Shown here in pieces: positions 6,432 through 54,317 of a stretch of DNA of 55,727 bases. How positions within the stretch are numbered: position 1 is the first letter of the stretch; each line of letters starts with the position of its first letter. A model generated the notes under the pieces. That model did no database searches. It saw only the letters and a program-made list of their open reading frames with translations, and was not told the DNA's origin. The DNA comes from a virus. Location of the stretch: the UHGV virus genome UHGV-0036148; one strand, given 5' to 3'. Made by a program: the position numbers and the translations under genes.

Positions 6432-6683
6432 CTAGAAATAGTCCTGTTCCGTTCCCCAACGGTTGTTCAAATATCCCACCAACCAGATAAAACGCTCAAT
6501 ACTGATTAGTGGGGCGACCTTGCGATAATGCTTTTCTAATATCAGCCGCGTAGCTTTATCGCTGTAGCCGTTTCTTTCTACCTCCGCTTTGCAGGCAGAA
6601 AGCGCAGCGCGGGCGGCAGCTTTTACGGCATTAAATTGCAGTTCTGACATATTGAACAAAGCCATAGGATCACCATTCATCAC
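6432..6683 (-). CDS. hypothetical protein (83 aa)
   Basis: ORF in operon context. Confidence 0.35.
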   Translation of the reverse strand: MMNGDPMALFNMSELQFNAVKAAARAALSACKAEVERNGYSDKATRLILEKHYRKVAPLISIERFIWLVGYLNNRWGTEQDYF

Positions 6684-6906
6684 CCCAATCAGGCGCTACA
6701 GTCCAGCAAAAACCAATGAATGCGCTAACAGCCAATAAAGCGCGGGCTGCAAAAAGAATATTCCCAATGTCGTTAAATTCAGGCAGCGACCACGTAATAA
6801 ACATAGCCCCCAGCATGATAACACCGATAGCAGTCAGGGCCGCCAGGAAAACAAAAAGCGTAGCCAAAAGCCACGCCCCCAACCAGTTAAAAAAGCTCTT
6901 AACCAT
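6670..6906 (-). CDS. small membrane protein (78 aa)
   Basis: two hydrophobic helices (WLGAWLLATLFVFLAALTAIGVIMLGAMFI ; ALLAVSAFIGFCW). Confidence 0.4.
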   Translation of the reverse strand: MVKSFFNWLGAWLLATLFVFLAALTAIGVIMLGAMFITWSLPEFNDIGNILFAARALLAVSAFIGFCWTVAPDWGDEW

Positions 6907-6907
6907 T

Positions 6908-7111
6908 TTAAACCTCGTCTATTACACCGCCTTGCACGCGCTCATTAATGTCCCATGTGTGAGATTTGCACACTTCTTGATAATAGTGATCCGGCCTGCT
7001 GCCGAAATACCATTTACCTTCCATATAAAAATAAACGCCCGAAAATATTCCGGGCGCTGCCTTTGTTGCTGATTCTGGAATCTTCCATTCTTTATATTGT
7101 TTAAACTTCAT
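6908..7111 (-). CDS. hypothetical protein (67 aa)
   Basis: ORF in operon context. Confidence 0.35.
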   Translation of the reverse strand: MKFKQYKEWKIPESATKAAPGIFSGVYFYMEGKWYFGSRPDHYYQEVCKSHTWDINERVQGGVIDEV

Positions 7112-7292
7112 ACATTAACACCGCCTTTTTAAGTGCGCTTAATTCAAAGTGCATAAGACGAAAATGCTGTACACCACCAACAATACTAACCTGATAAATA
7201 TCACCGACACAGTTATAGTAATAACAACCAAATTGACCGATTCCGGCTAATTTAGCGTTATCCGGTATCATGTATTCGCCAACCTTTTTCAT
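7101..7292 (-). CDS. hypothetical protein (63 aa)
   Basis: ATG at 7292 with GAGGTGA SD. Confidence 0.35.
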   Translation of the reverse strand: MKKVGEYMIPDNAKLAGIGQFGCYYYNCVGDIYQVSIVGGVQHFRLMHFELSALKKAVLMYEV

Positions 7293-7295
7293 ATA

Positions 7296-7388
7296 TCACC
7301 TCATATGGTATTCAATAAACCACCTGATAAACAGGCATAAGGCAATAAAACCCCAGCAACAGCACATATAAAACAATGTGTCGTCCAT
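7296..7388 (-). CDS. mini membrane peptide (30 aa)
   Basis: MDDTLFYMCCCWGFIALCLFIRWFIEYHMR; GAGG SD; stop overlaps SD of next gene. Confidence 0.35.
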   Translation of the reverse strand: MDDTLFYMCCCWGFIALCLFIRWFIEYHMR

Positions 7389-7390
7389 AA

Positions 7391-7609
7391 TTAAGCCTCA
7401 ATAACACCGTAATCAAACGTGCCTAAATACCGTTCGATGCTTACAACCTCAATACCATCAATGCACCGTTTCCACACAGACACCCGGCTTTCATTTTCCC
7501 GGAAGTGCATATTAGAAAGCACTTCATCGGCTGGATAGCCTTTCCCGGCGACGTAGGCATCGTGACCTACTCCACCCTCAACACAATAAAGCATTAATTC
7601 GCGGGCCAT
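7391..7609 (-). CDS. hypothetical protein (72 aa)
   Basis: first ORF after the 100-bp intergenic gap that carries a CRP-consensus site. Confidence 0.35.
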   Translation of the reverse strand: MARELMLYCVEGGVGHDAYVAGKGYPADEVLSNMHFRENESRVSVWKRCIDGIEVVSIERYLGTFDYGVIEA

Positions 7610-7686
7610 CTTGTCTTCCTCCGTGCCGTAAACCTTTTAATTTCAGTTCACAAAACGGATTCGCAATCACAACACAAAATGTATAT

Positions 7687-7708
7687 TTATGTGATCGCAA
7701 TCACAATG
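7687..7708. promoter_or_regulatory. CRP-consensus palindrome TGTGA-N6-TCACA
   Basis: ttaTGTGAtcgcaaTCACAatg, perfect half-sites with 6-bp spacer, in a 100-bp intergenic gap. Confidence 0.45.
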
Positions 7709-8329
7709 TTAATGAAGTACGCGTTTTTCAGGTTCAGGCACTAGCTGTGCGTCTTTCCGCGCGTCATTAAGCACAGCTATAGCTGCCTGTACACCTAAAT
7801 CATTTGCGCGCATATTATTGCCAACCATTTCGCCGTAAAATAATGGCATGATCGCCTTTACTTCTTCCTCTGTGTGACCTTCATCAATACACTTCTGTAA
7901 CGCTTTAGCCTCGAATACTTTTTTCATTACGCCGCGCACAGAATACAGCGCAACGCTACCCATATGATTTTCATCTAACGGGAAAATAACAGCACTTCCG
8001 AACGCCAGCGGGTCAATCTCTTCCGGTACTGGTACTCGCCCAAATTCTTCTTCCATTCGTTTTACGAAAGCGAGGCAGAAGACATAACGAGCTACGGCAG
8101 TTTTTTCTTCAGCGTTTAAAGACACATAATCGCGGATCGACGCGTCCATCACAATATCAACAATCTGTAACGCCAGATTCAAATCAGCGTCATACGCACC
8201 AGCTTCCATATCTTTTAATACTTCGTGATAATCTTTAATTTCTACTTCATGAAAACTTGCATCTTCAGTGTAGCGAGTGATTAACATGCCTTCGCTGCCG
8301 AGTGAATAAGCCGTTTTGATGTCTTTCAT
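7709..8329 (-). CDS. hypothetical protein (206 aa)
   Basis: long ORF in early-left operon; no recognisable motif. Confidence 0.45.
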   Translation of the reverse strand: MKDIKTAYSLGSEGMLITRYTEDASFHEVEIKDYHEVLKDMEAGAYDADLNLALQIVDIVMDASIRDYVSLNAEEKTAVARYVFCLAFVKRMEEEFGRVPVPEEIDPLAFGSAVIFPLDENHMGSVALYSVRGVMKKVFEAKALQKCIDEGHTEEEVKAIMPLFYGEMVGNNMRANDLGVQAAIAVLNDARKDAQLVPEPEKRVLH

Positions 8330-8342
8330 GATATTTATCCTT

Positions 8343-8675
8343 TTATAGTGGGTGATGCCATTTCATTTCAGTTTCTGGATTGAACGGGTTTCCTTCGCTT
8401 AAAAGGAATAAGTCACGCGCCCGTTTTAGCTCTTCCTGGTTTATTTCGATTTCATCAATCTGACCGAACGATCCAGGCATCATCCGTTTTAAATCAGATA
8501 GCGGGCGCATAAGGCCGCAGCCACGTAACAACATGTCTAACGCGAATTGCCGCCGCCCAGCCGCATCATTAAAGCGACGTGCCCACGGTACACACACGAT
8601 CCGGCGCTCGAACTCAATAAATAGCGATAGCTTGTTAGTTTCTGCATCATATGCTTTATGTAATTTAATTTTCAT
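8343..8675 (-). CDS. hypothetical protein (110 aa)
   Basis: ORF in operon context. Confidence 0.4.
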   Translation of the reverse strand: MKIKLHKAYDAETNKLSLFIEFERRIVCVPWARRFNDAAGRRQFALDMLLRGCGLMRPLSDLKRMMPGSFGQIDEIEINQEELKRARDLFLLSEGNPFNPETEMKWHHPL

Positions 8676-8856
8676 CTAACACCTCGATATATTGTTCAAG
8701 ATGCCATCTGCCGACTTCCTTCAGGTCTTCATCGTATATAACGACTTCCCCGCCCTGCATGATCATGAAGGCAGCGGCTGTAAATTCACGCCCCCACCAC
8801 GCCTTTAATCGCTCACCGCCTTTCAGGTCTTTGACCTTTACTTCTTTTATAGCCAT
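8665..8856 (-). CDS. hypothetical protein (63 aa)
   Basis: ORF in operon context. Confidence 0.35.
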   Translation of the reverse strand: MAIKEVKVKDLKGGERLKAWWGREFTAAAFMIMQGGEVVIYDEDLKEVGRWHLEQYIEVLDEN

Positions 8857-9119
8857 ACGCCGAACATCCCATTCAGTCCGGCGAACAATTTCCGCCAGTG
8901 GTTTTCAGCATAAGCCCGGAACGGCTTAACGCGAACATTGCGGGCCTTCAGTTCAATCTTGTCGAAGAAACGCGGCTCTATAATTGTTCCGTCCAGATAT
9001 TTAACCAGGATCGGACGCTCAAGATCGTCATGTGTCTTGTTCAGCACAACCAGACCAGGGTCTTTACGGTATTCCGGGAGCACGACCAGATCACCCGTTT
9101 TGATATTCATGAATGGCAT
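8847..9119 (-). CDS. hypothetical protein (90 aa)
   Basis: ATG at 9119 overlapping stop of upstream mini-ORF. Confidence 0.4.
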   Translation of the reverse strand: MPFMNIKTGDLVVLPEYRKDPGLVVLNKTHDDLERPILVKYLDGTIIEPRFFDKIELKARNVRVKPFRAYAENHWRKLFAGLNGMFGVWL

Positions 9120-9235
9120 CACATCACCCCGCCGATATAGCTAATAATTGCCGCAGCCGCGCCAGCCATTACCACCATGAAGACGAAAGCGACCACACAG
9201 AAAACGGCCTTGACAGTATTTTTGTCTACTCGCAT
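9119..9235 (-). CDS. mini membrane peptide (38 aa)
   Basis: MRVDKNTVKAVFCVVAFVFMVVMAGAAAAIISYIGGVM; GAGGT SD; TGATG overlap with next gene. Confidence 0.35.
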   Translation of the reverse strand: MRVDKNTVKAVFCVVAFVFMVVMAGAAAAIISYIGGVM

Positions 9236-9242
9236 ATAAACC

Positions 9243-9350
9243 TCACATGTCAGTAATCAGCTTAACAATCGCCACAGTGATATAGAGTGACGCACTAAGG
9301 TAAACAGCCGCCACAGCGACGGCGGCGGATAACATTGCAATCTTTTTCAT
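9243..9350 (-). CDS. mini membrane peptide (35 aa)
   Basis: MKKIAMLSAAVAVAAVYLSASLYITVAIVKLITDM; ATGA overlap with upstream stop. Confidence 0.35.
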   Translation of the reverse strand: MKKIAMLSAAVAVAAVYLSASLYITVAIVKLITDM

Positions 9351-11528: not shown

Positions 11529-11819
11529 TTAATGGTAGCGGACTTTATCCAGGGGTTTCTCCCCTAAATGGCGTGGTTGCGTTGCGTGGTAGTAGCTGCC
11601 GCTTTCATTTTCCGTATACCATTTTACTGATCCTTTGCGACGTTCTTTAATGCTATTTGGTTTGCATCTTTCCTCGTTTGCAAATCGAATAGCTTTATCC
11701 ACATTGTCTGTTTTATTAATTGCAGGTGATGATTTTCTTTCGTTTTCTCTTTTTATCCTTCTGCGTTCCCTGGCGTTCATTTTGCTATCACATTTTCCAT
11801 ACATAATTGTAACGCTCAT
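11529..11819 (-). CDS. putative N-like antiterminator (arginine-rich motif protein)
   Basis: NARERRRIKRENERK arginine-rich motif near N-terminus; first gene of the leftward operon. Confidence 0.3.
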   Translation of the reverse strand: MSVTIMYGKCDSKMNARERRRIKRENERKSSPAINKTDNVDKAIRFANEERCKPNSIKERRKGSVKWYTENESGSYYHATQPRHLGEKPLDKVRYH

Positions 11820-13531: not shown

Positions 13532-14578
13532 ATGAAGTGGTTTAAGCATGATAGCGATGCGAACCGCGATGAAAAACTTCAAAACGTTTTATTAGATTAT
13601 GGCCTGGAAGGGTACGGGCTTTATTGGTATTGCCTCGAACTAATAACTTATGACGTAGATCAGCACAATCTGACTTTTGACCTACGACATGACGCGAGAA
13701 TCATTGCGCGAAACGTCGGATCGACTGAAAAACGTATAGAAGAAATGATGAAATACTTCATCGAAATTGGTTTGTTTGAATGTTCTCAAGGCCACATAAC
13801 TTGTTTAAAGTTATTGAAAAGGCTGGACCAATCAATGACTTCTAAAAGCGCTTACAGGGCCGCCATAAACACAGCGAAGGAGCAATTAAAATTAGAAAAG
13901 TTAATCAATCCAACACAAAAAGGTCATGATAGGGTCATGACCGGGTCAGGAAAGGGTCATGAATTAGAATTAGAAGAAGAAAGAGAAAAAGATATATACA
14001 CTTCGTGTATTGTCGAAAATGAACAAAAAATGGTCAATCAGGATGGCGTAAACGAAGCGGCGTTGCGTTGCCTGGCCTTCTACAACGACAAGGCAGGATG
14101 CAAATGTCGTGATGCGAAGCCATTCATCGAACTACTGACAGAAACAAAAACACGTAAAGCGTATACGGAGGATGAGATCACATTAGTGATTGAGTGGGCT
14201 TTAACGCAATGGCGTAGCCGTGGTGGAACACCTAAGCCTATCAATATTTGCCGGGTAACTAAATTTGATGGGTATCTGACTGATGCTGAACAATGGCGCA
14301 AACTGTCAGCCACCGCAAACGCTGCCGACGTGGTGGAAGCATTTAACAGCACGTTTGACAGCCTGTTACCACCTGTCGAACTGGATCGGGATCTTGAGCG
14401 CAAGATCTATGCGTTCACTGACTACCTGAAAGACAAAAGCATTAACGGCTTTGTCGCCTACTTCGAAACGTTCAAAAACACGGCTTCAGATTTTTACTTC
14501 GGCGATGGCTTCACAGCGACACTTGATTTTCTGCTTAAACCAAAAACGCTACGCGATACACGCGCAGGCGCTCTTTGA
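13532..14578 (+). CDS. replication initiator / replisome organizer
   Basis: N-terminus MKWFKHDSDANRDEKLQNVLLDYGLEGYGLYWYCLE resembles the phage replisome-organizer N-terminal domain; contains iterons. Confidence 0.6.
   Translation: MKWFKHDSDANRDEKLQNVLLDYGLEGYGLYWYCLELITYDVDQHNLTFDLRHDARIIARNVGSTEKRIEEMMKYFIEIGLFECSQGHITCLKLLKRLDQSMTSKSAYRAAINTAKEQLKLEKLINPTQKGHDRVMTGSGKGHELELEEEREKDIYTSCIVENEQKMVNQDGVNEAALRCLAFYNDKAGCKCRDAKPFIELLTETKTRKAYTEDEITLVIEWALTQWRSRGGTPKPINICRVTKFDGYLTDAEQWRKLSATANAADVVEAFNSTFDSLLPPVELDRDLERKIYAFTDYLKDKSINGFVAYFETFKNTASDFYFGDGFTATLDFLLKPKTLRDTRAGAL
13915..14010. other. candidate origin of replication (iterons + AT-rich tract) inside initiator gene
   Basis: four 11-bp-spaced copies of GGTCATGA/GGTCAGGA followed by AT-rich attagaattagaagaagaaagagaaaaagatatata. 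Confidence 0.5.
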
Positions 14579-14712
14579 CCACCCACGATCCGCAAAAACC
14601 CAAAATAACCCGCAAAACAAGCTCGCCAGCGAGATAAATCGCATGTGGTGCTACACTTACTTACCTTTTTGCGATTAGCTCGTTATAGAGCGTTACAGAG
14701 AGGATTTCAAAA

Positions 14713-14814
14713 ATGGACGGTAAACACGTTTTCGCCCTGGCTTTTGCCATCGCCGCTGCAATAGCTGTTAACGTCGCCTTGTTCGGCGGTTTGTTCCTTC
14801 TCGTCAATCCATAA
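14713..14814 (+). CDS. mini membrane peptide (33 aa)
   Basis: MDGKHVFALAFAIAAAIAVNVALFGGLFLLVNP; GAGG SD. Confidence 0.3.
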   Translation: MDGKHVFALAFAIAAAIAVNVALFGGLFLLVNP

Positions 14815-14946
14815 CCTACCTACCAGTCTGTAAATCAAAAATTAGCCACCCGATAGCGCCTCTAGCGCAATAAGACACTGCAACCTGTGCAAACGGGTTA
14901 CGCGGTGGGATTTTTGCGTTGTAGAGCGTTTTACGGAGAAATTACA

Positions 14947-15684
14947 ATGTCTGAGTTGATGTGTTTTAATTTTGATGACAATAAAATCACTGCTGTAATT
15001 TATGACGGTAAACCTGCTTTTGTTGCGGTTGATGTGGCCCGTGCGCTGGGGTACAACGACGAGCATCAGGCCATTAAAAAACATTGTAAGTCATTGATTA
15101 AACTTGATTCCGTTAAAACAACGGAATTAGGTTTTGGGTTCAGACCAAAAGGCATAATTATAATTCGAGAGGCAGATATATACCGTCTTGTTATGAGATC
15201 AAAATTAGAATCAGCCGAGCGCTTCCAGGATTGGGTGTGCGAGGAGGTTCTTCCGGCTTTGCGTGAAAATGGGTGTTACGGTTGCAAACCTGCTTTGCCT
15301 GACTTCTCTAACCCTGCGGAAGCGGCGCGGGCGTGGGCTAATGAATACGAGCAAAAATTGTTAGTTAAGCAAGAAAATGAACGTCTTGCGCTTGAAAATA
15401 AAGTGCTGGCTCCGAAAGCGGCTGTATGTGACGCGATAGTCAAAAACGATATGCACCGAACGGCTTCAGAGGTAGCTAAACCGCTGGGAATGTCAGCCGT
15501 AAAATTAAACAGAAAACTTTCGGCGGTTGGTGTTTATGATCTTCGCTGTCGCCGCCGTGTATTCAGTCAGTGGTTTATTGATGAGGGCTACGGTGAAATG
15601 AGGGTAACTCACGATGGATATGAGCAGGCTGTATTCACTGCTAAAGGACAAGTATGGATCACTGAGCTTTTAACTTGCAACTAA
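14947..15684 (+). CDS. antirepressor (Bro-N + KilA-C/Ant domains)
   Basis: FNFDDNKITAVIYDGKPAFVAVDVARALGY Bro-N signature; C-terminal Ant-like region; GGAG SD. Confidence 0.75.
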   Translation: MSELMCFNFDDNKITAVIYDGKPAFVAVDVARALGYNDEHQAIKKHCKSLIKLDSVKTTELGFGFRPKGIIIIREADIYRLVMRSKLESAERFQDWVCEEVLPALRENGCYGCKPALPDFSNPAEAARAWANEYEQKLLVKQENERLALENKVLAPKAAVCDAIVKNDMHRTASEVAKPLGMSAVKLNRKLSAVGVYDLRCRRRVFSQWFIDEGYGEMRVTHDGYEQAVFTAKGQVWITELLTCN

Positions 15685-25754: not shown

Positions 25755-26003
25755 ATGAAAAACATGTTCAAAGTGGTTTTATTCTCTGCGGCTGTAGCTC
25801 TTACTGGTTGCGCTGTTGACAAAGAGGCCGCATTGCATAACCTGCCGAATAGCGGAGTAATTCCACAAGATGTTGTCTATGATGGTGAAGGTCATCTTGT
25901 CTATGACACTGAAAAACTGCCTTATACTGGTCAATGGTGTCATGAACTCGATCACAACATGCGCCGCATCGGTAGCCCTTCTAACTGTGTAGCTAACTAC
26001 TAA
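25755..26003 (+). CDS. small lipoprotein (moron)
   Basis: signal peptide with lipobox LTGC; AGGA SD; opposite strand between J and tail fibre; own terminator. Confidence 0.6.
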   Translation: MKNMFKVVLFSAAVALTGCAVDKEAALHNLPNSGVIPQDVVYDGEGHLVYDTEKLPYTGQWCHELDHNMRRIGSPSNCVANY

Positions 26004-33383: not shown

Positions 33384-33473
33384 ATCATACCAAAACGGTT
33401 GATAGCGATTTTTACAATATGTATATTGTACTCAAAAGGAAGCATGGTTAACAAAATGGCGCGGAGGTGTGAG

Positions 33474-33629
33474 ATGACTGATAAGGTGTGGAGGTTGACG
33501 GTATTCCTGTCAGGCGGCAGGGAAATGACTGTGGCTCTGTATAAAGACGAAGGCGAGGCACTGACTGACGCGCTTTTACTTACTGAAGATGACCGCGTTT
33601 TGGGATACAGGATCGAACCTGCCAAATGA
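33474..33629 (+). CDS. hypothetical small protein (51 aa), moron cassette gene 1
   Basis: GGAGGTG SD; plus strand inside minus-strand tail module. Confidence 0.35.
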   Translation: MTDKVWRLTVFLSGGREMTVALYKDEGEALTDALLLTEDDRVLGYRIEPAK

Positions 33630-33642
33630 AAGGTTAACAAAA

Positions 33643-33993
33643 ATGCAAAAATACAGATTAGACGTGTGGACTGATAAATGTGAGTGGGAAAGCATAGGAC
33701 TATTTGACACATTCGAATCAGCGCGTAATGAAGGTTGTGAATTGCTCCGCTGTTGGTCTGGTGCTCGTGATTATTATGTTATTCCGGTGCAAGTGCCGGA
33801 TAAGGTGGAAGAGATGAACCCGAAAGATATTAACTTTAACGTCAATGTTGAATTTGCCGACTCTATGGATCAGGCTTGCCCTGGTGAAATACACGCAAAA
33901 GGTTTCCCGGCAGACAATCCGCAAGCAAAACGCGAATACGAAAAAGCGGCAAAAGATTTCTGTATCGACAATTTGTCTGCGTTCGATAAATAA
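33643..33993 (+). CDS. hypothetical protein (116 aa), moron cassette gene 2
   Basis: ORF following gene 1 on plus strand. Confidence 0.4.
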   Translation: MQKYRLDVWTDKCEWESIGLFDTFESARNEGCELLRCWSGARDYYVIPVQVPDKVEEMNPKDINFNVNVEFADSMDQACPGEIHAKGFPADNPQAKREYEKAAKDFCIDNLSAFDK

Positions 33994-34002
33994 GGCGGCA
34001 AC

Positions 34003-34251
34003 ATGGGGCGGCGCAATCACGGCGATTATGTGTACACGTTGAAACAGGCCGCCCGCCTCGTTGGTTATCATGAACACGAATTTATTGATTTGCTGATTGA
34101 GCGCGGGATACTGTACCAGGTCTGTTTAACGCTGTACCCGAAAGCGAAATACCTACAGGAAAAGTTATTCATCATCATGACGGATGAAAACCAGGTTAAC
34201 CATTCATTCGTCACTGATAAGGGCGTTAATTATCTGCGTGATAACTTATAG
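34003..34251 (+). CDS. hypothetical protein (82 aa), moron cassette gene 3
   Basis: AAGGCGG SD; plus strand. Confidence 0.4.
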   Translation: MGRRNHGDYVYTLKQAARLVGYHEHEFIDLLIERGILYQVCLTLYPKAKYLQEKLFIIMTDENQVNHSFVTDKGVNYLRDNL

Positions 34252-34261
34252 GTGACAGATT

Positions 34262-34378
34262 ATGAAAATAGAAGTTTTGGCGCTAATAATAATGGGATTG
34301 ATAGTATTTGGCGTTCATGCTGTAGATCTGGACTGGAAAACGATAGCGGAAAATATAGCATTAATGGAAATGGAATAA
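34262..34378 (+). CDS. mini membrane/secreted peptide (38 aa)
   Basis: MKIEVLALIIMGLIVFGVHA... hydrophobic N-terminus; GGTGA SD. Confidence 0.3.
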   Translation: MKIEVLALIIMGLIVFGVHAVDLDWKTIAENIALMEME

Positions 34379-34382
34379 TAAT

Positions 34383-34410
34383 AACCCCGCTTCTCGCGGG
34401 GTCGTGTTTA
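34383..34410. terminator. hairpin terminator closing the plus-strand moron cassette
   Basis: CCCCGC-ttctc-GCGGGG hairpin; T-rich on minus side, TCGTGTTTAT on plus side. Confidence 0.45.
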
Positions 34411-49649: not shown

Positions 49650-49736
49650 TTAAAACCATTTACATAGAATATATAAGCACGCAATTAATGTTGCGCAGTA
49701 CGTTAATACTTCCAGCCAGTCGAATAGCTCTTTCAT
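49650..49736 (-). CDS. mini membrane peptide 9 of array (28 aa)
   Basis: MKELFDWLEVLTYCATLIACLYILCKWF; AGGTGA SD; stop overlaps terS SD. Confidence 0.4.
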   Translation of the reverse strand: MKELFDWLEVLTYCATLIACLYILCKWF

Positions 49737-49743
49737 TGTTCAC

Positions 49744-49812
49744 CTACTGAGTTAGTGCAGCCATAGTCAGAGAAATAGCGACAAACAGGAAGAAGAAATC
49801 AAGCCATTTCAT
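49744..49812 (-). CDS. mini membrane peptide 8 of array (22 aa)
   Basis: MKWLDFFFLFVAISLTMAALTQ; AGGAG SD. Confidence 0.4.
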   Translation of the reverse strand: MKWLDFFFLFVAISLTMAALTQ

Positions 49813-49829
49813 TTTTGAACTCCTGCGAT

Positions 49830-49901
49830 TCAGTTAACACTTAAAAGCACCGCAATAATGACAATCACTATAATCATGCAAAAGAAATCTGCTTCCCTCA
49901 T
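49830..49901 (-). CDS. mini membrane peptide 7 of array (23 aa)
   Basis: MREADFFCMIIVIVIIAVLLSVN; ATGA overlap with upstream stop. Confidence 0.4.
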   Translation of the reverse strand: MREADFFCMIIVIVIIAVLLSVN

Positions 49902-49978
49902 TTCCTGAACCCTCGATAAAAGTCAACAGCAACGACCACAACTACAGCCACCAATAACAGCATTTCATATGCGTTCAT
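49898..49978 (-). CDS. mini membrane peptide 6 of array (26 aa)
   Basis: MNAYEMLLLVAVVVVVAVDFYRGFRK; GGGAG SD. Confidence 0.4.
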   Translation of the reverse strand: MNAYEMLLLVAVVVVVAVDFYRGFRK

Positions 49979-50072
49979 CGACACTCCCTATAACCAGCCC
50001 AATAATAAGGATGATGGCGACAACGCCCAGCATCATGCCGAACATGATCGCCAGTAATTCGAATATATCCAT
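49965..50072 (-). CDS. mini membrane peptide 5 of array (35 aa)
   Basis: MDIFELLAIMFGMMLGVVAIILIIGLVIGSVDERI; AGGTGA SD. Confidence 0.4.
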   Translation of the reverse strand: MDIFELLAIMFGMMLGVVAIILIIGLVIGSVDERI

Positions 50073-50080
50073 GCCGTCAC

Positions 50081-50155
50081 CTATACGACATTCTTCCACC
50101 AGAAATAGATAATGACGGCGACCACTGACCACCAGATGAGATCGTAAACACTCAT
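50081..50155 (-). CDS. mini membrane peptide 4 of array (24 aa)
   Basis: MSVYDLIWWSVVAVIIYFWWKNVV; GAGG SD. Confidence 0.4.
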   Translation of the reverse strand: MSVYDLIWWSVVAVIIYFWWKNVV

Positions 50156-50164
50156 GCGGATGCC

Positions 50165-50239
50165 TCAGCTTTCAATGAATATCATGATCGCCAGCCATAC
50201 AGCGAAGCAGGCGGAAAGGATGATGAGCGGGTCAATCAT
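50165..50239 (-). CDS. mini membrane peptide 3 of array (24 aa)
   Basis: MIDPLIILSACFAVWLAIMIFIES; GGGGTGG SD. Confidence 0.4.
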   Translation of the reverse strand: MIDPLIILSACFAVWLAIMIFIES

Positions 50240-50252
50240 CTTGCCACCCCGT

Positions 50253-50348
50253 TTAGCATTTGCTCTTTGTGGCTATCAGCACAGCGATAACAAAACCCAC
50301 CAGGAATACAGACACGCCGATCAATCCGGCTATTTCGTAAGCGTTCAT
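50253..50348 (-). CDS. mini membrane peptide 2 of array (31 aa)
   Basis: MNAYEIAGLIGVSVFLVGFVIAVLIATKSKC; shares MNAYE start with peptide 6. Confidence 0.4.
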   Translation of the reverse strand: MNAYEIAGLIGVSVFLVGFVIAVLIATKSKC

Positions 50349-50352
50349 ATAG

Positions 50353-50421
50353 TTAATCCCATAACAGAAAGACTACAGCTATAACCATTCCGATGAATAA
50401 ACCACACAGAAAAGTGAGCAT
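50353..50421 (-). CDS. mini membrane peptide 1 of array (22 aa)
   Basis: MLTFLCGLFIGMVIAVVFLLWD; GGGGG SD; ATG 2 nt after stop of HExxH gene. Confidence 0.4.
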   Translation of the reverse strand: MLTFLCGLFIGMVIAVVFLLWD

Positions 50422-51287: not shown

Positions 51288-51758
51288 TTATTTTTTGCGT
51301 AAGCACTGCGTTTTGATATAGCTCTGAAGTCCGGCGATCTTCGCGTCTTTCTCTTTTAGTTGTTCTCTGAGGGATAGATAAGCCGATTCAGCGTCTGGAG
51401 TGAGTCTACAGGTGGCTCCATCAATGCGGCTGGCGGTTCCGGTATTGTCGAGCAATCGCACTGGCTCGGCGTTGACGTGCAACCGGATAGCACCGCTATC
51501 AATGCCAGCACGCAGATCGGCAATGTCAGATCTGATAGCTTTAATCTCATCGTGATACCTCTTATCAAGTTTTGACAGTTCGGCGTTTCGCTCCTTCATC
51601 TGCTGAATAGTGTTACTTGCTGTTTTTAGTGCGCCTTTCGTCACCGTGACTTCTTCCTGCAACCTTGCCGTTTCACCCTGGTAATAACACGTTACGGCTG
51701 TAAGGCTGGCAATAATGCAAACAACAACGGCGATGATTAACGTCTTCACCTTGTCCAT
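51288..51758 (-). CDS. i-spanin (Rz-like)
   Basis: N-terminal TM helix then coiled-coil; directly downstream of endolysin. Confidence 0.65.
51356..51550 (-). CDS. o-spanin (Rz1-like) embedded in Rz in alternate frame
   Basis: [24 protein letters not shown] lipobox, Pro-rich mature part; fully nested in Rz. Confidence 0.55.
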   Translation of the reverse strand: MRLKLSDLTLPICVLALIAVLSGCTSTPSQCDCSTIPEPPAALMEPPVDSLQTLNRLIYPSENN

Positions 51759-52237
51759 TTCTCACCCCATTCGCAAACGGCATATTCAACCTCGCGGCGG
51801 TTTACCAGGCCTTGCCACTTCTTACCGCCAGCGTATACCCAGCGTTTAAGCTGTGCGCACGCTTCTGATTTCTTGCCGTCATTGAGTAGTTTTAATAAGG
51901 TTGATGTTTTAAAGTTGGTTGTGCCTACGTTATAGGCGAATGAATAAAGTGCTGCGCGGGTAAAATCTGATATTTCGACTTTAATATAGGGATCGATCGC
52001 TTTTGCGGTCTTGTGTAGATCTTTATTTAACAAAGTATCGCATTCTGATTGCGTGTAAGTCTTGCCAAGCATGATGTCTTTTCCGGTGTGACCGTGGCAA
52101 ACAGTCCACACACCAACAACATCACGATAAGGATTGTAATCAACTCCCTCTAATGGCTTAATCATCACCGCCGCAATAGCGATCGCCCCACCAGCCGCCG
52201 CCGCAACAATCTTGTTTTTCAGCGATTGGCTAATCAT
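51746..52237 (-). CDS. SAR endolysin (T4-lysozyme-like muramidase)
   Basis: Gly/Ala-rich N-terminal SAR segment [18 protein letters not shown]; E...D...T catalytic spacing in [18 protein letters not shown]. Confidence 0.85.
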
Positions 52238-52438
52238 TTACTTATTCCCCATTCGCGCGTCGTGTTCCTCTTGCGCTCGCTTGTTCTCCTGTGATTTGAA
52301 GTAATAGTTAACGGCAAATGTGCCTACGGTTGATAAGATACCCACAAAGACGGCAATATCATTGATGGTTATCGCGCCGAAAAAAGCAGTTACGGCCCCA
52401 GTCACATACGCGCACGCCTCCCGTATTCTGTCTAACAT
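52238..52438 (-). CDS. holin (pinholin-like, two TM segments)
   Basis: 66 aa, two hydrophobic segments, charged C-terminus, immediately upstream of SAR endolysin. Confidence 0.65.
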   Translation of the reverse strand: MLDRIREACAYVTGAVTAFFGAITINDIAVFVGILSTVGTFAVNYYFKSQENKRAQEEHDARMGNK

Positions 52439-54295: not shown

Positions 54296-54317
54296 TACAT
54301 TGTGATACAGATCACAT
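54296..54317. promoter_or_regulatory. CRP-consensus palindrome TGTGA-N6-TCACA
   Basis: cattgTGTGAtacagaTCACAtttt; perfect half-sites, 6-bp spacer, A/T flanks as in CRP consensus. Confidence 0.45.

Follow-up and report, generated by a model that had tools for sequence, protein, structure and literature searches.

The virus genome UHGV-0036148, whose 55,727 nucleotides (55.7 kb) form the window analysed here, is a complete temperate siphophage of Escherichia coli in the mEp021 (“mEpimmI”) group. Five very short open reading frames (ORFs), here designated A30, B38, C35, D33 and E38, are scattered across it (Table 1), and with good confidence we regard them as real genes that are translated into inner-membrane microproteins with a single membrane pass, a reading drawn from sequence comparison. 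All five are coding sequences under purifying selection, are preceded by translation signals, and encode one membrane-span-like helix each. From there we infer membrane insertion, topology, helix–helix binding and the timing of expression.

Conservation and selection across relatives

The frames were followed through approximately 45 related phages and prophages, with identities of 77-96% across about 43 relatives. The comparison drew on 39 IMG/VR loci collected around the 91-aa gene that adjoins B38, on 44 loci around the 82-aa gene of a tail moron and on 48 loci around the small terminase gene terS, together with GenBank phages and one prophage; individual loci carry L numbers. Ratios of nonsynonymous to synonymous substitution (dN/dS) are Nei-Gojobori estimates, calculated in frame and in the +1 and +2 shifted frames. 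Comparative conservation of the frames, a check that the earlier note on this DNA had proposed, came out clearly in favour of coding: nearly all loci retain intact frames for A30, B38, C35 and D33, as do most MKIE-type loci for E38, and in-frame dN/dS values of 0.12-0.32 stand against values of about 0.5-2 in the shifted frames (Table 1). Four accepted genes flanking the ORFs gave dN/dS values of 0.16-0.22, and the sites that vary fall preferentially at third codon positions (binomial p = 0.003-0.03).

Table 1. Micro-genes and associated elements, with frame conservation and dN/dS where estimated
Feature	Position	Strand	Sequence and description	Intact frames	dN/dS in frame	dN/dS in +1/+2 frames
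A30	7296..7388	minus	30-aa micro-gene, peptide MDDTLFYMCCCWGFIALCLFIRWFIEYHMR	42/43 loci (premature stop in L017)	0.12	0.77 / 2.1
B38	9119..9235	minus	38-aa micro-gene, peptide MRVDKNTVKAVFCVVAFVFMVVMAGAAAAIISYIGGVM	43/43 loci	0.32	0.82 / 1.07
C35	9243..9350	minus	35-aa micro-gene, peptide MKKIAMLSAAVAVAAVYLSASLYITVAIVKLITDM	42/43 loci (start lost in L012)	0.19	0.98 / 1.48
D33	14713..14814	plus	33-aa micro-gene, peptide MDGKHVFALAFAIAAAIAVNVALFGGLFLLVNP	35/37 loci (region replaced in L017, L036)	0.15	1.98 / 1.62
E38	34262..34378	plus	38-aa micro-gene, peptide MKIEVLALIIMGLIVFGVHAVDLDWKTIAENIALMEME	24/31 MKIE-type loci	0.14 (first 22 codons, nucleotide-defined set)	1.5, 0.64 (shifted)
GC-rich hairpin inside C35	9307..9326	minus	GCCGCCGT-CGCT-GTGGCGGC, then TGTTTACCTT			
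Promoter-like site	33399..33427	plus	TTGATA-17-TATATT, 10/12 consensus matches only; upstream of moron genes			
Intrinsic-terminator-like hairpin	34384..34402	plus	CCCCGC-ttctc-GCGGGG, 6 nt past E38 stop			

Individual residues are held constant as well. In A30 the invariant positions are W12, G13, L19, F20, R22, W23, I25 and E26; in B38 they are F12, F17, F19, G25, A28 and A29, which include a GxxxA motif (G25xxxA29); C35 has twelve invariant columns; and D33 retains K4, the string FAIA, a mid-helix V19-N20-V21 and the string LFGGL. B38 and C35 each occur in three variant types that diverge down to approximately 45% identity and nevertheless keep their length, charge pattern and hydrophobicity.

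The gap that A30 occupies is more elaborate in two IMG/VR loci (L039 and L041), where the homologues of the flanking 72-aa and 63-aa genes enclose a divergent A30 homologue, MDAELMFMACCWGIVMVGLFLRWVIEKYL, along with an additional 33-aa hydrophobic ORF, MWLIDLILACWLIVLVGFVGYFAWEEGKHNGRY. L039 carries an inserted 124-aa gene in the same gap.

Genomic setting and translation signals

The gene layout of the window was inferred by synteny with annotated relatives. A minus-strand early operon begins at an N-like gene (11819..11529) and continues through erf, ssb, abc2 and many small genes of unknown function, followed on the same strand by a Q-like gene, the lysis genes (~51288..52438, placed by synteny with the phage MagusPhagus and the prophage of strain 190), the terminase and the structural genes. 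On the plus strand, a second early operon runs from approximately 13196, carries the replication genes and ends with the integrase. A30, B38 and C35 belong to the minus-strand early operon and D33 to the plus-strand replication operon, and E38 lies on the plus strand amid minus-strand tail genes.

Each of the five begins with ATG and has a motif resembling the Shine-Dalgarno (SD) sequence 7-9 nt upstream: GAGG for A30 (7396..7399) and for B38, GGAGGG for C35, GAGAGGA for D33 and AGGTGA for E38. C35 and B38 are knitted into their surroundings, in that the ATG of C35 overlaps the stop codon of an upstream 74-aa gene (ATGA), B38 has its SD motif fused to the stop codon of C35, which it overlaps, and the stop of B38 shares nucleotides with the start of the 91-aa gene (GTGA / TGATG). 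A30 fills a 99-nt gap between a 72-aa gene (7391..7609) and a 63-aa gene (7101..7292), starting 2 nt after the upstream stop and ending 3 nt before the next ATG. D33 stands alone between an O-like replication gene (13532..14578) and a Rha/antirepressor-like gene (14887..15684), with non-coding flanks of ~135 nt on one side and ~70-130 nt on the other. The earlier note had described all five as hydrophobic ORFs of fewer than 60 aa with SD sequences and start/stop overlaps. Their coordinates, SD motifs and hydrophobicity stand; overlaps, however, are found only at B38 and C35, A30 being set off by spacers of 2-3 nt and neither D33 nor E38 overlapping a neighbour. A strand had been given only for D33 and E38 (plus), and the remaining three are on the minus strand.

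The D33 flanks carry features of their own. In the stretch 14569..14712, a boxA-like CGCTCTTTG that closes the O-like gene is followed by an A-rich 135-nt spacer with ccgcaaaa repeats. This spacer is conserved to the same degree as D33 and may be a regulatory or origin-related element. A terminator-like hairpin is located within D33 (14773..14790), and no promoter-like site was found around the gene on either strand between 14300 and 15000.

The predicted membrane segment

Every peptide has a single hydrophobic segment, with Kyte-Doolittle maxima over 19 residues of 1.9-2.75 across the five. Summed insertion energies (dG) on the Hessa scale ranged from -2.3 to +0.7 kcal/mol for the best 19-mer, versus ~+11 for two soluble neighbours. 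The hydrophobic character claimed earlier, for which transmembrane (TM) prediction had been the suggested check, is thereby borne out as one membrane-span-like segment per peptide by both measures, insertion itself being predicted. The E38 core, at only ~13-17 residues, is borderline for a membrane span.

The arrangement of residues around this segment differs from peptide to peptide. A30 has an acidic N-terminus, a Cys/Trp-rich hydrophobic core and a basic C-terminus, and in B38 a basic N-terminus gives way to ~29 hydrophobic residues that extend to the C-terminus. C35 opens with MKK, continues with a hydrophobic stretch and reaches LSA-S. Finally, E38 consists of a hydrophobic N-terminal half ending in VHA and an acidic C-terminal tail.

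A recurrent class within the genome

Small hydrophobic ORFs with good start signals are considerably more frequent in this genome than its composition would predict. A genome-wide filter (ATG start, SD-like motif, 18-60 aa, and a hydrophobic 17-mer with a Kyte-Doolittle value of at least 1.9) passed 17 ORFs in the window, versus 2.5 ± 1.5 (maximum 6) in 60 dinucleotide shuffles, a ~7-fold excess; the reversed window sequence yielded three. The 17 comprise the five ORFs studied here, seven in an array at 49650..50421 on the minus strand, one that is an internal start of a 78-aa gene with two TM segments, and four that lie inside long genes and look spurious. The array, seven single-helix micro-ORFs of 22-35 aa with ATG starts and SD motifs, occupies the space between a 194-aa gene and terS, and is probably what the earlier note called a “nine-gene array”. 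In 48 relatives, the 2 kb upstream of terS hold a median of 9 such ORFs (range 2-12) in several homologous families. The suggestion that membrane microproteins form a recurrent gene class in this genome is therefore upheld, by the excess over shuffled sequence as well as by the array and its counterparts in relatives.

E38 and the tail moron cassette

E38 is the last gene of a plus-strand cassette that also contains a 134-aa gene (33589..33993) and an 82-aa KilAC/ANT-domain gene (34003..34251), and that is flanked by minus-strand minor tail genes. With a predicted promoter and terminator, a location between late genes and variable content among relatives, the cassette has the anatomy of a moron. 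The hairpin after E38 (Table 1) also obtains a terminator score on the minus strand, and is retained in relatives regardless of what occupies the slot before it.

What occupies that slot varies considerably between relatives (L045-L088). Among 46 loci, 31 have an MKIE-type ORF, 38 or 45 aa long, whose C-terminal tail is of one or the other of two unrelated kinds, and the other 15 have a non-homologous 24-aa hydrophobic ORF, MCEHYVLEVIIIIIGLLCILLSTL (MCEHY-type). Some slots add a 23-aa hydrophobic ORF, MDKVIENVLVVAGAIAIVYAFLN (MDKVIEN-type), or a 67-aa soluble gene. Across mixed tail types the dN/dS of E38 rises to 0.37. E38 is less constrained than the other four ORFs, its ATG being lost in 6 of the 31 relatives with this ORF type and its frame shifted in one; the intact-frame counts, taken together with the in-frame and shifted dN/dS values, thus indicate a real but dispensable accessory gene.

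Distribution and annotation

Relatives of this phage are few in phage records and more numerous as prophages. Only seven phage records (mEp010, mEp013, mEp021, mEp044, mEp515, mEp554 and MagusPhagus) match the three regions of interest, at 82-94% identity, and a related prophage was found in 35 complete E. coli genomes, including strain 190, where it is integrated beside ogt. The A30 motif pattern occurs in 42 IMG/VR contigs, all of the mEpimmI type and about 50-57 kb long; its eight matches in GTDB species representatives fall in unrelated taxa and were taken as chance, and a GTDB scan with the neighbouring 91-aa gene found no relatives. Likewise, a search of 1.84 billion representative proteins with B38 retrieved no cluster but its own. 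The five families appear to be confined to one E. coli phage lineage.

The earlier note had called these genes un-annotated, which is true of some records only. The positions of A30, B38, C35 and D33 are empty in the 2018 mEp021 record and in the annotation of strain 190 made by the Prokaryotic Genome Annotation Pipeline (PGAP). Elsewhere, records made with PHANOTATE/pharokka (mEp010 and MagusPhagus) list equivalents of the same four as hypothetical proteins, and E-type ORFs lie under annotated coding sequences (CDSs) in five mEp records. Public protein collections contain the exact A30, B38, C35 and E38 peptides under the name “hypothetical protein”, each on 266-429 contigs; no exact match to D33 was found there.

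Proposed role and alternative explanations

As favoured here, A30, B38 and C35 would be delayed-early genes of the operon headed by the N-like antiterminator gene, with translation coupled to that of their neighbours through the ATGA and TGATG overlaps or the 2-3 nt spacers. D33 is a stand-alone small gene of the replication operon, and E38 the terminal gene of a promoter-genes-terminator moron. Each peptide is predicted to insert as one TM helix, in an orientation that would follow the positive-inside rule: the N-terminus inside for B38 and C35, N-out/C-in for A30, and a periplasmic acidic tail for E38. Their action would be non-enzymatic, through packing against host or phage membrane proteins, and candidate contact features include the GxxxA motif of B38, the invariant mid-helix Asn of D33 and the WG...RW pattern of A30. 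The consequence may be an effect on the host envelope or on superinfection, during early lytic growth for A30, B38, C35 and D33 and possibly in the lysogen for E38. The neighbouring genes match only families of unknown function, so no partner can be proposed.

Several observations weigh against this reading. A30 is truncated in L017, C35 lacks its start in L012, and among the 31 MKIE-type ORFs only 24 are intact, with six having ATG changed to ATA and one a frameshift; because E38, A30 and C35 are lost in some relatives, none of these is strictly essential. The dN/dS values are pairwise, ignore phylogeny and come from short alignments. At the position equivalent to the C35 hairpin, the mEp021 record has a terminator, TERM_2. 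The hairpin, which recurs near this place in several C35 variants but is missing from others, may be a by-product of Ala/Leu codons, or coding and terminator functions may coexist there. For mEp021, an experimentally tested terminator named t2 has reportedly been described (Valencia-Toxqui et al. 2023). Searches of Pfam, PHROG, NCBIfam and PADLOC returned no family match at a meaningful E-value for any of the five (in Pfam, nothing at E <= 1 except two weak sub-threshold matches to E38), and no family or structural homologue pointing to a target was found. Finally, the only paper on the group, a 2025 study of the mEpimmI phages, does not mention the five ORFs (PMC11893012); its proteomics covered virion proteins only.

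Coding for a functional peptide is not the only way in which such ORFs might be kept. The act of translation could matter rather than the product, by handing ribosomes from gene to gene or by controlling a terminator hairpin, and the start/stop overlaps at B38 and C35 as well as the hairpins within C35 (at the TERM_2 position) and D33 would fit such a role. Against this, selection on the amino-acid sequence equals that on neighbouring genes in strength, particular residues stay fixed amid variation at synonymous sites, hydrophobicity persists across variants that are only ~45% identical, and some C35 variants do without the hairpin; we therefore reject pure coupling or leader ORFs on the selection data, and judge a regulatory or coupling function of this kind very unlikely. 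We likewise reject, on the comparative data, the idea that these are chance frames between genes which permissive gene finders have over-called. PHANOTATE has a known tendency to over-call, PGAP leaves these ORFs out, and 31 of 513 (6%) out-of-frame small ORFs inside genes are hydrophobic, yet the conserved frames, the dN/dS values, the SD motifs, the exact fit of ORFs into gaps and the excess over shuffled sequence leave this explanation scarcely credible.

Other alternatives accept the peptides and question what they do. The stand-alone D33 and E38 have the size and hydrophobicity of type I toxins, small killers held in check by antisense RNA, and the long non-coding flanks of D33 are as conserved as its ORF. 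Such an assignment seems highly improbable, since a search of the whole window against Rfam gave no antitoxin or sRNA family (e.g., Sok, Sib, Rdl) at the gathering score, with three hits at E <= 1 located elsewhere, a result that bears on known sRNA families and leaves room for a novel one; no toxin family of Pfam or NCBIfam was hit at E <= 1; the D33 region showed no promoter-like site on either strand; and A30, B38 and C35 are coupled within an operon, unlike known type I loci. A somewhat better case can be made that E38, perhaps along with C35, is cut as a Sec signal peptide, so that some 15-25 aa are secreted, and does not serve as a membrane anchor. E38 has a 13-residue hydrophobic core with V-H-A before VD or AD, in keeping with the -3/-1 rule, and its tail past VHA exists in two unrelated versions behind a constant N-terminal half; C35, similarly, runs from MKK through a hydrophobic stretch to LSA-S. 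On the other hand, the N-terminal half of E38 is its most constrained part (dN/dS 0.14), which would be unusual for a mere export signal, its n-region (MKIE) has no net positive charge, and the would-be mature part of C35 is itself hydrophobic, all of which makes this possibility doubtful. A holin or antiholin role was rejected, as all five map outside the lysis cassette.

Beyond genuine membrane microproteins taken singly, a bolder extension may be entertained. At least a dozen single-helix microproteins (the five, the 7-9 genes of the terS array, and extras in relatives), with non-homologous TM peptides swapping in fixed slots, might constitute a selected, modular “membrane microproteome” directed against host inner-membrane machinery or membrane-bound defence effectors, or else a hotspot for the de novo birth of micro-genes. 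The idea arises because the E slot holds MKIE, 24-aa MCEHY and 23-aa MDKVIEN types before the same terminator, and it is offered as a speculation that we think is probably wrong.

Neighbouring features

The 78-aa protein with two TM segments encoded at 6670..6906 (minus strand) adjoins a homologue of mEp021 Ipe (6432..6683) and is named “cell division protein FtsK” by PGAP in prophages. That name looks like a misnomer, because the only match of the protein is PHROG 14059, a family of unknown function.

Perfect palindromes of the CRP consensus, TGTGA-N6-TCACA, are present at 7690..7705 and 54301..54316 (two observed versus 0.04 expected). The former lies in a 99-nt gap between a 206-aa gene and the 72-aa gene, just upstream of the block formed by the 72-aa gene, A30 and the 63-aa gene; it is conserved in the closest prophage (L005, 20791-20806) and could be a CRP-dependent internal promoter or regulatory site. 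The mEp010 record places a 33-aa CDS (mEp010_35) in the gap equivalent to window positions 7578..7700 (minus strand), where the window has a non-hydrophobic TTG ORF that overlaps the palindrome. This CDS is probably a PHANOTATE over-call.

Comparison with known systems

Small-gene families of phage genomes have reportedly been described by Fremin, Bhatt, Kyrpides and colleagues (Cell Reports 39:110984, 2022). In Enterobacteriaceae, 67,297 clusters of intergenic small ORFs have been catalogued (PMC11188072). The five micro-genes share with these sets a length of no more than 50-70 codons, a ribosome-binding site, purifying selection, a mostly hydrophobic and putatively TM character, and a tendency to be skipped by annotation; they differ in having no Pfam, PHROGs or NCBIfam family and in their apparent restriction to a single lineage of E. 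coli phages. Small hydrophobic phage genes are thus an already recognised class (PMC11188072), to which the five are uncharacterised additions, and because of this no new principle is involved; interest will be modest until a function is found. That said, ~10% of the genes in a gut-prevalent E. coli phage group are lineage-restricted micro-genes with a predicted membrane location, which escape mainstream annotation (PGAP and the reference mEp021 record), and the five are well-supported candidates for functional screens of superinfection exclusion, host takeover and anti-defence.

Size and hydrophobicity are also shared with the type I toxins (Hok/Gef, Ldr, Ibs, TisB, ShoB); the differences are that no antisense RNA family or toxin family was matched here and that three of the five are embedded in an operon and coupled. 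Within the same early operon, Ipe and the adjoining 78-aa protein have a comparable accessory character, and the 78-aa protein is of membrane type. Overexpression of Ipe is reported, in work cited by the mEpimmI study, to cause envelope-related effects, namely HlyE vesicles and cell death (PMC11893012). Ipe and the 78-aa protein have no sequence relation to the micro-ORFs, and nothing ties the latter to the Ipe phenotype.

Lambdoid siphophages carry morons among their tail genes, for example lambda lom and bor, HK97 gp15 and the Cor lipoproteins. The E38 cassette resembles them in its promoter-like site, its terminator, its orientation against the late operon and its variable content; E38 differs in being far smaller than known exclusion proteins and in lacking a lipobox. 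Exclusion of the Lpp/Cor type has been described in the mEpimmI phages (PMC11893012), and the characterised exclusion lipoprotein of the group is a different gene, at 25755..26003 in the window.

A further parallel may be offered by bacterial inner-membrane regulators such as AcrZ, MgrB, KdpF and MgtS, the class studied by the Storz laboratory, which are single-TM peptides of ~30-50 aa and work by attaching to larger membrane proteins. The peptides described here are phage-encoded, sit in early operons and, by the Pfam search, show no sequence similarity to that class, but they share its size and, by prediction, its single TM segment, and their GxxxA and polar-in-helix motifs would suit the same kind of helix packing.

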